Source: Rhynchobatus australiae
Taxonomy: Eukaryota
Reading direction: 5' to 3'
NCBI GenBank assembly: GCA_034780895.1
Contig: JAUZTB010000074.1
Coordinates: forward strand, 5,312,764 to 5,376,763
Length of the DNA: 64,000 nt
Shown: piece after piece, positions 2,699-57,850 of the stretch
Layout: every line of letters begins with the position of its first letter
How positions within the stretch are numbered: position 1 is the first letter of the stretch
Position numbers and translations under genes: made by a program
Notes under the pieces: model-generated
Told to the model about the DNA's origin: nothing
What the model saw: the letters and a program-made list of their open reading frames with translations, nothing else
The model's database searches: none

Positions 2699-3708
2699 TA
2701 AAATCTTGCAACTGCTTCAAGGTAAAGAAGACCAAAGCTGGCATAGTCCTTCAGCAAAATTACTCTGGCAGTGACTGCATTTATAGCAGACCGAGTGGGA
2801 AACACGTGAATCGTGAATAGAATACAGAGAGGAATGTGAAATGGCATGAAATGAAAAGATTTCGTTCAGCTGATGATATATAGTTGTGCATTGGGCTTAG
2901 TTCATGTGAGTTTCAAAGTGAAAGCCAAAATCCAAACCATAACTTATGTGTGGATGTTCAAACATGGTCGAGATAAAGTGAGCAGAGTGTACCCCTTCCT
3001 TTTAGGTTGTGAGTTCTTGCACAGACATAAATACCTTAAAACGTAGAAATACAGCAGTTTGGAGCCAGATGTAATCTCTGAGGCTGAAATTTTTATGTGT
3101 TTCCTTTGAATAGTCACTAAGATGATCTGGCATACTGCGCAGTTGTAACCCTTTGGAACCCCTGGTAGATTAGATATATGAAAAGTGGTTCAAGAAAAGT
3201 CACCGTGAAAGTTCAACGTCTTCGGTGTAGGAGCATCACCAAATTTGAAAAGGGTAGGTGAGTTATAAAAATTTGTAACTTCAAGGAGGAAGAGCCAGCC
3301 GATGGAGAAAAGGAATTCCACAGTTTTGATCCCCTGGGAAAGAATGAGTTGGAGCAGGAAATGGTGTAATCAGTCCTGTTTCAGCTGAGTGACGATTTAA
3401 GATTTTGAAATGAAATTAGTTGAAGCAATCTGAGCTTACGTTTACTATTTTATATTTTCCAATCAATTATTAAACCAAGTTGCAACAATGTGCATTTGTA
3501 AAGTATCTTTAGTATAGCCAAATATGCACATTGATTCACAGAAGTGTATGATCAAATTAAATTGGACAATAAGGCACAGAAGGAAAAAAAAATTGGGGAC
3601 AGATAATGAAAAGTTTGGCCAAGGAGGGTGGTTTTAAGGAATGCCTTGAAGGGAAATGTGAGGTAGAGAAGCAGTGAGGTTTAGGAGAGTCTCCCAGTCT
3701 TTAGGAAA

Positions 3709-4816: not shown

Positions 4817-7800
4817 GCAAAATGATGGGAGCTGAAGGCACTTGCATCGATGGTGGACTGCTTAGAAATAGGGANNNNNNNNNNNNNNNNNNNNNNNNNN
4901 NNNNNNNNNNNNNNNNNNNNNNNNNNNNNNNNNNNNNNNNNNNNNNNNNNNNNNNNNNNNNNNNNNNNNNNNNNTGATGGGAGCTGAAGGCACTTGCATC
5001 GATGGTGGACTGCTTAGAAATAGGGATGAACAAGAGGCTCGAACTGGGAGAGTGCAGAGTGATCCAAGGCTTCTCTTGCTGGAGGAGACTACAGAGATAA
5101 AATCATCTGAAATAAAATTCTTTCTGTTAAATCCTTCCACCATCCACCTCTGATAGTGGAAGGATTTAATAGAAAGGATTTTATTTCATTTTGTGAGCCA
5201 TCAGCTTTTCCCATTCGCTGTGGCTTATGTGAACTGATCTCTTTTACAATTTTTGCTGTGGTAATGTCAATGTTCAAAGTCAATGGCTGTTATTCAAAAG
5301 CAAGCTATGATGTGTGACAGTTATTTGAAGGAGAAAACTTTGGATGAATCTTGGGAATATGTTCTAAGTCCACAGCTGTTGACCTCCCTCTTGGACAACT
5401 CCATATCCATTTTGCCAGCTCCCAACTTAAGTTTGTTCGTATTTGGACTACACAGAAGCTGTGGATTAGAGTTATCTTTGCCTTCTTCCTGTAGCAAGCA
5501 TGATCTGCAACCAAGTACAAGGCAGCTTGAACCTGTCCATGCTGCCTTTACCTGCTCTGTGAAGCTCACCATAGTCAAAGTCAAAGTCAAGTTTATTGTC
5601 ATATGCACACGTACATGTACGCACAGGTTCAATGAAAAACTTACTTCCAATAGCATCACCGGCACAGAGCGTCATATAAGCAGCATTCACAAGAAAAAAC
5701 ACATAAATTATACACATTTTTTAGAAGAAGGCCATTCTCCCTGCATCTCCAGCAGGCGGTATCAAATGTCAAGATGCTGCCATCATTACCAAGTCATTGG
5801 ATGCACTAGCCTTTTTTTTATATGTCAGCAAAATATCTTCCTTTTATGATGAGCTGTAGCTTTATAGAGCCATTGCCCAAAACACCATGCCACAGATCAA
5901 GCCCTCTGTGGAAACAATCCGTGTGACAATAACTAACTCAAATTAAGTGTGGTGCTGCCTTTGGAAAACTCAGCATCGTCTACACCCAGGTGAATGGTGC
6001 AGTATACATGTGAACCTGTGGCCAGTTCAAATCAATTTTTGCTATTACTGGAAAATTGGCTATCACTTTTATCTAAGTAAGCATTATGCCACAAAGTCAG
6101 CTGTTATCTTAATGTGCCACATGTTTTGAGGATCATCTCATTTGGTTGACCTTGGGAGGTCAGGGCTGAATGTGGTGTGGGGGATCTTGGTGATAGTTTG
6201 ACAGTGTAGCCATTTGCTTTCCTTGTTATGTGATAGGGTTAGCTGGTGTTGCTGTTCTCCATGGTCCTCAGGAGAAAACAATAGAGATTTCCAACACTGG
6301 TCTACCTCTGTTTCTCGAGAGAGAGAGAGAGATGTAGCATTGAAAGAGGCATTTATCCCACAGTTGGCTCTACGATGACAGACCCTTATCCTTCTTCCTT
6401 CCTTTCACTCCATTTCTTTTTACTTTCATCTTTTCAGAATATAACCTAAATAACAGAAGAAATTGCAGCTGGAAGAGGCATTTCAGCATGCTCTGTTACT
6501 CAAATTGGCATACGAGCTGTACCTCAACAGTCAATGCAACCCGAGTTTTGTCATGGGTAGCCTGTTGCCCCTTTATTCTTAAAATGTCATTCCAGAGTCT
6601 CTGACCTTTTTGATACCAGCTCTCTTACCAATGAAAACTTTTTAATGAAACCTCTATTAGGCTTTCTTTTGCCGACTAATCCACTGATAATTGCCCTGGG
6701 ATATACAGTTATTCACATGACCTATGACATTATCAAATTCCTGCTTGGGGGTATTTACTATAATTGATTTTCCTTCAGTTTATTTTCGGAATAATGGAGA
6801 AGTAGGGCTTTCCCAGTACACTCATTGAATGAGTTTGTTCTAGTTGATGTAGCTATTTGATAATTACAGTATTTGTTTTCATTCATAACAAGACTTTCTA
6901 GTGAATACCCATTTGATTATTTAATTTATTAATGACCCTGCCTCTGCTTGTGCTGAGCTTGACTTCTGAGGTTAACTGGAGATAGCATAAGACAGATTCC
7001 TGTTCAACTTGTAGTTGAGTACATTTTATATCTGATCCCCTACCAATACNNNNNNNNNNNNNNNNNNNNNNNNNNNNNNNNNNNNNNNNNNNNNNNNNNN
7101 NNNNNNNNNNNNNNNNNNNNNNNNNNNNNNNNNNNNNNNNNNNNNNNNNNNNNNNNNNNNNNNNNNNNNNNNNNNNNNNNNNNNNNNNNNNNNNNNNNNN
7201 NNNNNNNNNNNNNNNNNNNNNNNNNNNNNNNNNNNNNNNNNNNNNNNNNNNNNNNNNNNNNNNNNNNNNNNNNNNNNNNNNNNNNNNNNNNNNNNNNNNN
7301 NNNNNNNNNNNNNNNNNNNNNNNNNNNNNNNNNNNNNNNNNNNNNNNNNNNNNNNNNNNNNNNNNNNNNNNNNNNNNNNNNNNNNNNNNNNNNNNNNNNN
7401 NNNNNNNNNNNNNNNNNNNNNNNNNNNNNNNNNNNNNNNNNNNNNNNNNNNNNNNNNNNNNNNNNNNNNNNNNNNNNNNNNNNNNNNNNNNNNNNNNNNN
7501 NNNNNNNNNNNNNNNNNNNNNNNNNNNNNNNNNNNNNNNNNNNNNNNNNNNNNNNNNNNNNNNNNNNNNNNNNNNNNNNNNNNNNNNNNNNNNNNNNNNN
7601 NNNNNNNNNNNNNNNNNNNNNNNNNNNNNNNNNNNNNNNNNNNNNNNNNNNNNNNNNNNNNNNNNNNNNNNNGCATTGTCTGGCTCGCTTGTGTAATGCC
7701 ACACTGTCTCAGAAATAACAGGCATTACTGAAAAACTTGAATCAAAGTTCTAACAGCTGCCTCCAGTAGATGCACAACTCATCAGTCAGCACCTGACGAT

Positions 7801-39018: not shown

Positions 39019-39117
39019 TATCTGCCTGCAGAGTCTATGCTACGTTATTGTCAGTTATACCAGTTACAATATGTAGTGGCTTCAGGCAATGAGTATTCAA
39101 AACCTATATACAAAATA

Positions 39118-39312
39118 AATGAAAAACACGATGATGCTGGAGGAACTCAGCAGGCCAGGCAGCATCCATGGAGAAAAGCAGGTAGTCAACGTTTCGGGTC
39201 AGGTCCTGACCACCTGCTTTTCTCCACGGATGCTGCCTGGCCTGCTGAGTTCCTCCAGCATTATTGTGTTTTTCATCTAGATTCCAGCATCTGCAGTCCT
39301 TTATTTCTCTAG
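39118..39312. mobile_element. Palindromic Penelope-derived element forming a long hairpin
   Basis: Near-perfect inverted arms of about 68 bp at 39120-39188 and 39207-39277. A close copy of the right arm lies at 41856-41947. Confidence 0.8.
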
Positions 39313-39593
39313 TTGTCAGACAGATGCTGATATACTGTATATATCCTGGAAAAAGTCTCTTCCCATTATGCAGTTAAACTCTGATAATTAAATTTAACCA
39401 GGACCCCATTTCCTGTACCTACTGCGTTCACTGGAAAGTTTATTATAATAGCATGTAACATCTAAAGAAGTGAATTAAAAGAGTTCTGGGGTATTAATAA
39501 ATAACAACATCCAATTATCCCAAAACTCTGCCAAAGCCTTGACTGAAAGAGAGTGCAGAGCTGTGGTCATGGTGAGTCAGAGGGGAGCTTGGG

Positions 39594-39673
39594 AACTGGG
39601 GTCAGGGTGGGTCAGGGGGAAACTGGGGTCAGGGTGGGTCAGGGGGAAACTGGGCCCAGGGTGGGTCAGGGGA
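39594..39673 (+). repeat. 27-bp G-rich minisatellite, 3 copies
   Basis: Unit aactggggtcagggtgggtcaggggga starts at 39594, 39621 and 39648. Confidence 0.95.
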
Positions 39674-39762
39674 GAGATGGCATCAAAGAATGCGGAAGAT
39701 TTTCATCTGAACCAAAGGACAAATGCGACAGCAGTTCCCTGCTGTGGAGTAGTAGTTCTAAA

Positions 39763-40585
39763 GCAGACCAGAGGGCGTCTTTCACCGAGTTGATGACATT
39801 CCAGCAGCAGTTGATGTCCGTCTCTGTGTGTGTGTCCCCGGGAACAGCCCGTAGATCAGAGAATCCTCTGTTACGCAGCTGCTGGGGATGAACCGCGTCA
39901 AGGACCCCTGCATCTTTTGCCACATCCTCCTCGCAAGCCCACAGCCTGCAAAGAGGTGAGCGACCATCTTGTCCCCAGCACAGCCCTCCCGGGGGCAGCA
40001 TGCGCTAGAAGTGAGGTTGTGACCATGCAGGAAGGATCTGACTGGAAGGGCCCCTCTTACCGCCAGCCAAGCGAGGTCTTAGTGCTTGTTGGTGAGTTCT
40101 GGCGATGAGGCGTTCTGCCAGATGGTCTGGACAGTCTGCTCAGGGAACCACCCCACAGTACCCATTGAGACCTTCTCCTGCAGTGTCTGCAGGATGTTCC
40201 CCTTTGGTCTGCCTGAAACTTGTTGATCTCCCAGCACTGCGAGATGTCCGTAGGGGAATGCTGCCGACTGGCACATTCCAGGCTACAGGAGTACGTGCTG
40301 AGGGACGCACTGAAGCTGGGCGCAGCCAACGCAAGGGCTCGGTGGGGAAGGACGACAGTCTAGGGTTCTTCTGCCACAGGAGAGGGAGGGGTGGGGTCAG
40401 GCAAGAAAGCCCCTAAATATTATAAATACAGGACTGGGTAGCCCCCAGTGTGGCATCAGTGCTGTTTTTTTATATAAAAAGGTAACACCAATGAATGATC
40501 TGTACAAGAATGTAAAGGCTTGCACTGTTTTATAATTGTATATCATTTTTATTATGAATAAAGTTTACTTTGGAATATAAAAAAA
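39763..40585. mobile_element. Tx1/L1-clade LINE 3' fragment with 5' inversion, poly(A) and 17-bp TSD
   Basis: Minus strand 40200-39763 reads NILQTLQEK...WQNASSPELTNKH*DLAWLAVRGALPVRSFLH...CCPREGC...HLFAGC (zf-RVT-like)...INSVKDALWSA. Plus strand 40201-40363 continues LWSA*NLLISQ...LRDALKLGAANARARWGRTTV*. AATAAA at 40557, A-tail at 40579-40585. TSD agtagttct(a/g)aagcaga at 39751-39767 and 40585-40601. Confidence 0.88.
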
Positions 40586-42469
40586 GTAGTTCTGAAGCAG
40601 AATCTGAAGCCCATGGGTGACCAGCTGTTACTGATGTAGCAGAAGCCATCTACTGCATGAAAGTCCATTCAAGATGCTGAAACTGCTAGAAAGGAAGGGC
40701 TCACATCCTCAGCCGACTAGTCTGAGCCGAAAGAGTGAATCAAAGCAATTCTCGTCGCGTGATTTCTTCAGAGGGAAAGTTTTCAAACCAAAAAGCCACA
40801 GAGAGGAAGTCCACAGAGTATTGAAGCCAGTGTGAACAATGGAGAAACAGGCTTGTATCACTCTCATACCAACAGTAGCAATGACGGAAAGCAGAATAAT
40901 TTCTAGACAAAGGTATAGTAAAACAGCCAGTGCATCAGCAGATCGCTCAGTTATGGGCAAGGATGCATATCTGTTCAGCCAAGCTACAAATGGCCCCCTC
41001 TGTCATAAGAGAACACAAAAATGGCCACAAGTACCAAAGAGGAAAATCTTTGAAAGCTGGAGCAAGCATTCAGATGGCTACTCATTCACAATGGAAAGCT
41101 CAAAGTGAATGGTTGTTTGTTGGGCCAAAACTAGATGCAAATGGATTGCAACCAGTCAAAGGAGAGGAATGTTCTGGGATGACATGACTTAGTCATGTTC
41201 ATTTCTGAGTGCTTTATGGAGTGCATTATTGATTATAAGCACATTTCACTAGTGTTAAATGGTGGAGCGAGGAGTCGGTGACAAGTGTCAAGGAAGCAGT
41301 GAAGAAATGGGTAACACAAGGGAGCTCCTGTTTAATAATGAGACATCAATTGGCACACCTTTTGCTGAACTACAGGACAGCGCAAGTTAATGCTGCTGTG
41401 GAGTTGCTCATGTGCAGGGACGCGGAACAACAGCAAGTTCAGTTCAGCTAAATCAAGGGGCAGTTGAGACAGAAACAAAATCTTGATCCATGGGATGAGT
41501 TGAATCAACTTGATGCAGTTCCTTATGTAAATACCACATCACAAATCTGATATTCGGAAATGGGGAGAAACAATATTTTTCACTGTATTTCAGTGACAAT
41601 AATAAACCAGCTACCAATCTAGCTTGTTTTCACTCTTTCCTAGTGCCAATGAAAGGTTTTCGAATTGAAACGTTAACTCTGTTTCTCTTTCCACAGATGC
41701 TGTCTGACCTGCTGAGTGTTTTCAGCATTTTCTGCTTTTATTTGGAAATGTGGTANNNNNNNNNNNNNNNNNNNNNNNNNNNNNNNNNNNNNNNNNNNNN
41801 NNNNNNNNNNNNNNNNNNNNNNNNNNNNNNNNNNNNNNNNNNNNNNNNNNNNNNNTTTCTCCACGGATGCTGCCTGGCCTGCTGAGTTCCTCCAGCATTA
41901 TTGTGTTTTTCATCTAGATTCCAGCATCTGCAAGTCCTCTGTTTCTCTTCCACTATGTACAAAATTCTTCATTATGCTGAAGAAATCTAAAAGGAGATCT
42001 GTGCGGGGTTCCAATGGAGTTGTAAAGATTTGCTTTCCCTCCCCTTACTGCCAAGAATTTGAGTTTGAGACTTTAATTATAATTTAGTTGTTTGGGTGCA
42101 AAACATAATTACTTTTGCAAACAAGCACGTAAAAATATTTACTTGTTCTCTCTGAACAGAATGATTCTTAGTTCTACAGTGCCAGACTATTAACTTCTCA
42201 ACTAAATATTCAAAATATAAAGCATTTATTATTTAAAATCGTAAGACTGGGAGAGTTTGAAATAGTTTAATCGCTAAAATCGAAAGCTTTTGTAAAACCT
42301 GAATAATTTTCACCAGAAAATGTCAATTTTCCCCAATTTGATTTGAGTTTGAATGCAAGTTAATCGTTTTAGAAAACAATCGACAATCATTTAAATTTTA
42401 TCAAAGGGAAATACTAATTCAACAGAGGAGCACATCTGCTCCAGTGGTTCCAAATGCTCATTGATTTTG

Positions 42470-57689: not shown

Positions 57690-57850
57690 CTCCCACATTC
57701 CAAAGACATATGGGTTAGGAAGTTATGGACATGCTATGTTGGTGCCGGAAGCGTGGCGACACTTGCAGGTTACCCCCAGGACACTCTATGCAAAAGATGC
57801 ATTTCACTGTGTGTTTCAACATACATGTGACTAATAAAGAAATCTTATCG
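57690..57850 (+). mobile_element. V-SINE-like element with Rex1-type tail
   Basis: Close copy of 16068-16230. The 5' part is lost in an assembly gap. Confidence 0.65.

Follow-up and report, generated by a model that had tools for sequence, protein, structure and literature searches.

A LINE insertion in the 64,000-nucleotide stretch of DNA analysed here (the window) has its front 438 bases inverted, very probably because both cut ends of the target DNA primed reverse transcription on the same RNA, the process known as twin priming. The insertion, at 39751-40601, is the 5'-truncated end of an ORF2 in two oppositely oriented halves enclosed by one target-site duplication (TSD). The twin-priming model for 5' inversions of L1 was reportedly put forward by Ostertag and Kazazian in 2001. 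The case described here is a known mechanism in a new lineage, a rare accident that is cleanly preserved and well supported. As with human L1, it is the geometry that would point to twin priming. This reading, already proposed in an earlier note on the same DNA, is supported by a single TSD, an empty site, collinear halves that overlap by 13 nt, and microhomologies of 5 nt and 1 nt at the joins (Table 1).

Table 1. Coordinates of the insertion and its parts (window positions)
Feature	Position	Strand	Remarks
Left TSD copy, 17 bp	39751..39767	+	direct repeat; empty-site contig joins there
5-nt microhomology: final 5 TSD bases, able to pair with the RNA at the putative internal priming site	39763..39767	+	
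Inverted half, 438 nt, ORF2 C-terminal region; putative second-primed cDNA	39763..40200	-	reference 3024 to 2588
13-nt overlap, inverted copy	39763..39775	-	
13-nt overlap, forward copy	40200..40212	+	
Internal junction between halves	40200		1-nt microhomology, 0 extra bases
Forward half, ORF2 end to stop; putative poly(A)-primed cDNA	40200..40363	+	
3' UTR	40364..40578	+	AATAAA at 40557-40562
Short A tail	40579..40584	+	next A (40585) is the first TSD base; A run 40579-40585
Right TSD copy	40585..40601	+	mismatch to left copy at position 10

The two opposed halves lie where the earlier note had placed a split ORF2 C terminus, with the correction that the forward half begins at 40200 and not at 40201; the C at 40200 is compatible with either half. 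The minus-strand half terminates in ...VKDALWSA. At the amino-acid level, the order of the halves is confirmed by a natural protein, P0001, whose residues 340-464 and 459-496 match the minus strand, the second of these alignments extending beyond the junction, and whose residues 481-533 match the plus strand. The stop codon of the forward half is a TAG at 40361-40363, and with its tail the whole forward part covers 385 nt (40200-40584). The 17-bp TSD with a single mismatch also stands: its copies are identical at 16/17 positions and give a local alignment score of 14, against a maximum of 10 among 5,000 random window positions. The last 5 nt of the left copy (gcaga) do form the start of the inverted segment, and the chance of a microhomology of at least 5 nt at a random join is about 0.5%. 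The duplication of about 13 nt that had been seen between the breakpoints is an inverted repeat with 12/13 identical positions and corresponds to a true overlap on collinear copies. The target, GGAGT/AGTAG, is not a TT/AAAA site, in agreement with the first description. The intact hallmarks once ascribed to the insertion are found at its junctions and not in its ORF remnant, which carries stops and a frameshift; the window copy is dead and has no likely function.

In the element's own genome (2.23 Gb), a search returned 5,774 candidates; 40 of them were scored and 29 other loci fetched. The two halves are consecutive on one strand with a 13-nt overlap in 28/29 of these loci, while the 29th hits a gap, so that the alignment to family copies proposed earlier as a check shows collinear breakpoints. 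The inverted half is 88-90% identical to the 29 loci, which were selected for their coverage of that half and are therefore unusable as a sample for rates. The RNA-3' end of the inverted half touches the TSD and, in RNA coordinates, is next to where the forward half begins (reference 3024 versus 3012), the layout that twin priming demands. From the family majority the inverted half diverges at 25/422 sites and the forward half at 6/151. The earlier note had named different subfamilies or separate TSDs as findings that would speak against its reading. A single TSD is common to the halves, and their subfamily patterns are compatible, which, with 6 diagnostic sites in the inverted half, gives a slight indication of one subfamily.

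These comparisons bear on the possibility that two RNAs or two insertions, one per orientation, came together at the same site, which is very unlikely. Head-to-head pairs of apparently different templates do exist in the family (L049, L167 and L203; 3/135), yet their overlap runs to hundreds of bases, and no shared TSD is seen in the two with readable flanks. The window copy has a single TSD around both halves, which meet on the RNA to within 13 nt, and its inverted half lacks a separate 3' end. Across 41 collinear alignments (among them two pairs that each represent one place retrieved twice), similarity to one half goes with similarity to the other (rho 0.44, p 0.004); L004 and L006 lie near both.

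Of 11 sequencing runs with word matches to the right flank, five (X1, X2, X8, X10 and X11) were compared with the locus. The empty site that the earlier note had called for is found in run X2, from a related organism. In a 1,317-nt contig (record 25), bases 418-1028 correspond to 40595-41195 and bases 1029-1172 to 39615-39760, with 33 differences over about 600 nt of right flank. Since the contig covers the left flank to 39760 and resumes at 40595, the flanks are joined via 10 + 7 = 17 bases, a single copy of the TSD 17-mer. The element is absent and both flanks have the same orientation, which places the flanking DNA outside the inversion and disposes of the concern that the inversion reaches into the flanks. 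The split point in X2 suggests that the left TSD copy keeps the ancestral base.

The other runs concern the possibility that the locus is a misassembly of repeats. The window has 25 N runs, and the internal junction at 40200 is bridged by none of the listed contigs; the X11 contigs end inside the TSD on both sides, and runs X1 and X8 have no junction coverage. A misassembly is nevertheless extremely unlikely. Run X10, possibly the source sample, has exact contigs over 39625-39792 and 40548-41200, that is, over both outer junctions, the left contig having only 30 letters on the element side, one below the required minimum. No gap lies within 1.1 kb on either side, with no N letters between 35900 and 41755, and an assembler would have no reason to make an inversion at the TSD edge whose 13-nt overlap has its own mismatch.

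A second clean twin-primed copy occurs in the family at L106 (G000:C65:29607819-29610719; 1890-2520 in element orientation). It has a 15/16-nt TSD with one indel, a 218-nt inverted half, a gap of at most 6 nt and a microhomology of 3 nt, for which the chance is about 5%. Its flanks are unrelated to those of the window copy. The two copies together help to weigh a further explanation, in which insertion gave a plain truncated copy and two subsequent DNA breaks, with a 13-nt stagger at the inner one, flipped its 5' part. Repair of an inversion with staggered breaks yields the same inverted 13-nt duplication, so the geometry by itself is compatible with such a history, and the family has other rearranged copies (L076, L107 and L311). 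A later inversion is still unlikely: the outer break would have to hit the boundary between TSD and element with no flank lost or gained, and would have to do so again in L106. The length of the overlap also equals the median for human twin priming given in the accessible part of PMC12016303. From the exact breakpoint at the TSD edge in two loci, we infer that the inversion was made at insertion.

For twin priming at this site, the order of events would follow the human model as outlined in the accessible parts of PMC2912911, PMC4245944 and PMC12016303. The endonuclease would nick the bottom strand at GGAGT/AGTAG and copying would start on the poly(A) tail, with the top strand cut 17 nt away before copying was completed. 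The 3' end of the top strand, GCAGA, could then pair with UCUGC inside the RNA and prime a second cDNA extending toward the RNA 5' end, 433 nt further. The first cDNA would pass through the internal priming site, 13 nt beyond its 3' edge. Joining of the two cDNAs at the 1-nt microhomology, followed by filling in, would duplicate the target. Neutral decay later took the copy to 4-6% from the family majority. A different route to opposed cDNAs is a snap-back (fold-back), in which the first cDNA folds on itself and primes antisense synthesis; such junctions are known for insertions by the R2 protein (PMC11371274, accessible part). A snap-back re-copies the sequence of the forward cDNA, whereas 425/438 inverted bases here lie upstream of the forward half, which largely refutes this route and leaves its probability close to nil.

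The window copy shares with twin-primed L1 of human and chimpanzee an inverted 5' part, a forward 3' part and an A tail within one TSD, as well as the TSD length, a short microhomology at the TSD edge and an overlap near 12 bp. In the accessible parts of the human studies, twin-primed L1 has TSDs of 10-20 bp (PMC4245944), a 5' microhomology in about 70% of cases, 2-5 bp long (PMC2912911), and, in the germline, an overlap in 42% with a median of 12 bp (PMC12016303). Microhomology is an unspecific sign, being present as well in nearly 80% of human L1 copies that are simply truncated (PMC2912911, accessible part). The lengths of the window halves, 438 and 385 nt, fall between the somatic and germline L1 medians reported in the same portion of PMC12016303. 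Unlike L1, the window-copy family belongs to another LINE group, likely Tx1, lacks the TT/AAAA target and inverts far less often, and the window copy has a very short A tail.

The frequency of inversions was estimated from four 3'-end patterns, which match 804 places (147, 254, 319 and 84). The 255 places examined were mostly the first listed, and three duplicate loci were dropped. Of these copies, 127 are simply truncated, 2 are tandem, 6 adjoin a minus-strand piece, 117 are interrupted by an assembly gap and 3 extend beyond the locus. Inversions are rare in this count of inverted against truncated copies, which the earlier note had suggested making, and their rarity speaks against twin priming: clean twin-primed copies amount to 1/135 resolved (95% CI 0.02-4%), or 1/54 once forward-only copies shorter than 350 nt are excluded. 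The rate may be underestimated because long copies are probably the first to be lost to gaps and any inverted piece beyond the 3.4-kb reference is missed. The family rate of about 1% compares with 18% of human germline L1 (165/897, PMC12016303; Fisher p 4e-10) and with 31% in PMC2912911, both figures being taken from the accessible parts of these papers. Long TSDs are usual in the family, with a score of at least 10 in 27/125 truncated copies versus 0/116 controls and lengths of 10-23 nt. The remaining 98/125 truncated copies have no recoverable long TSD, which could reflect decay, short TSDs, target deletions or mis-called 5' ends. Seven 5' ends fall at reference 3155, which may be an alignment edge.

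Several other arrangements turned up in the same set. The copies L049, L076, L107, L167 and L203, all with an adjacent minus-strand piece, are not twin-primed, having no TSD or the wrong geometry. The inverted internal pieces at L107:836-2534, L076:1152-1527 and L311:2732-3055 likewise show no twin-priming geometry or no TSD. The members of the three head-to-head pairs, L049, L167 (extended as L330) and L203, meet at their truncated 5' ends or close to them, possibly through two RNAs primed at one break. A same-template origin of these pairs came out negative or unclear, with self-identities of 83, 87 and 91%, in each case lower than for the best other copies. In L010, L047, L207 and L254, truncated copies follow one another head to tail with little or no sequence in between, which could reflect template jumping or insertion at the elements' own A tails. 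A candidate half-element, with ORF1 beside the 3' end, was rejected, as L088, L121 and L195 all have an intervening gap. Close upstream of the 5' end in 8/127 truncated copies (L036, L063, L079, L084, L086, L179, L258 and L280) lies a piece of apparently one other repeat (matches of up to 300 nt), which is common to L299, L306 and L307; chance, target preference or template switching may be behind this association.

Judged by its domains, the window-copy family is an APE-type non-LTR retrotransposon of the L1/Tx1 group. A longer copy, L031, encodes an APE endonuclease (PF03372) and a reverse transcriptase (RT, PF00078). By RT, the nearest named relatives come from Mobula (81%, covering 55% of the query) and Heterodontus (77%, covering 53%), ahead of relatives from amphibians and bony fish at about 40-50%, which makes a cartilaginous-fish host likely. 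No named Tx1 element appeared in the searches for relatives, and cluster look-ups supplied no clade name. ORF2 of the relatives is about 1,100-1,180 aa long and includes a zf-RVT domain. It is distant from human ORF2p: relative P0007 scores 305 bits versus human L1 ORF2p and 79 versus R2, and the best solved relative is L1 ORF2p. Among 30 loci with a PF23058-type RRM, 10 have downstream DNA that is 75-86% identical to the endonuclease of the window-copy family, and the relative P0031 combines PF23057, PF23058 and zf-CCHC. An RRM/CCHC ORF1 in non-mammalian animals has been tied to the Tx1 clade (PMC5203782, accessible part). Because APE and RT domains are present in the family and an RRM-type ORF1 in sister families, the window-copy LINE is likely a member of the Tx1 group, with the RRM-type ORF1 known from relatives and sister families.

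As far as the accessible parts of PMC3747384 and PMC5203782 describe the Tx1 group, it resembles the window-copy family and its relatives in the APE endonuclease, RT and zf-RVT of ORF2, in the RRM/CCHC-type ORF1 of relatives and sister families, and in the AATAAA and A tail. The frog Tx1 element inserts site-specifically, whereas the window-copy family shows no target-sequence specificity. The 27 recovered TSDs have no common target sequence when compared by eye. TT/AAAA occurs at 0/27 of these other TSD-defined sites, two of which read TT/AAA; the window copy reads GT/AGTA.

On the reference, the inverted half begins at 3024 in the window copy and at 3021 in L106, a distance of 3 nt. The chance of such a coincidence is about 1% as estimated from the spread of truncation points, a figure obtained after the fact with n = 2. 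Breakpoints also peak in human L1 (PMC12016303, accessible part). Pattern scans looked for places where the family sequence ends immediately past the shared site. The first scan found none, and a widened scan, in which both known cases were matchable, recovered just those two, which indicates that the method works. The 4 matches of a further scan proved to be three internally deleted or diverged copies and one without a family match. The motif is intact at 680 places and exact in 37/64 sampled copies, and the scans see an estimated one third of breaks at the site among about 1,200 covering copies. Given this sensitivity and no third case, a strong priming hotspot at the shared site is unlikely, and there may be a weak one. 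Simple truncation points show no pile-up there, with 5/129 in reference 3000-3040. RNA folding of one natural copy predicts the priming site to be paired, with no open loop there (probability that the 5 nt are unpaired 0.002, median 0.028), which speaks against priming at this site. It is a speculative and rather doubtful proposition that long-TSD LINEs in general have long been capable of twin priming, those of the Tx1 group and of cartilaginous fish included, and that the window-copy family has a preferred internal priming site. If it were true, the shared GGUCUGC stretch near the end of ORF2 would be a stall site set by RNA or protein rather than a place of chance annealing.

No report of twin priming in Tx1 elements or cartilaginous fish was found in the literature searched, with most subscription papers outside its scope. 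In their accessible parts, PMC5389967, PMC6007223 and PMC6895275 treat twin priming merely in passing or in their references, and PMC4476161 extends it to mammalian snRNA/L1 chimeras. In the accessible part of PMC4245944, the inversions described are confined to human L1 in human cells, apart from a single 5'-inverted insert of the zebrafish element Nimb-2_DR (I group) in chicken DT40 cells. The Nimb-2_DR case is alike in being a rare 5' inversion of a non-mammalian LINE with TSDs longer than 10 bp. It differs in being a cell-culture insert from another clade, whereas the window-copy family offers natural germline copies and an empty site.

The proposal in PMC4245944, as given in that part, is that inversions need an L1-like long overhang together with host factors, and the link that it draws between inversion and long TSDs fits the window-copy family. 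The copies described here, which are natural, belong to a distant LINE group and in one case have an empty site, favour the overhang component of this idea and weaken a mammal-only view. The rate, roughly twenty-fold lower than that of human germline L1 despite similar TSD lengths, provides a natural contrast for work on what determines inversion rates. The additions made here are the empty site, the second case (L106) and a first rough inversion rate for the family.

Elsewhere in the window, 0/17 long frames (picked from 56) match Pfam in a search for host genes. A G-rich tandem repeat with a 27-nt unit occupies 39556-39685, immediately left of the insertion, and its length varies in runs X11 and X2. 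Exact duplicates flank 100-N gaps at 4823-4874 / 4975-5026 and at 12844-12875 / 12976-13007 and are likely assembly overlaps. Interspersed repeats pair 924-1358 with 24088-24516 and 16067-16217 with 57695-57845, and a short inverted-repeat element at 39116-39310 is found again at 41856-41948.
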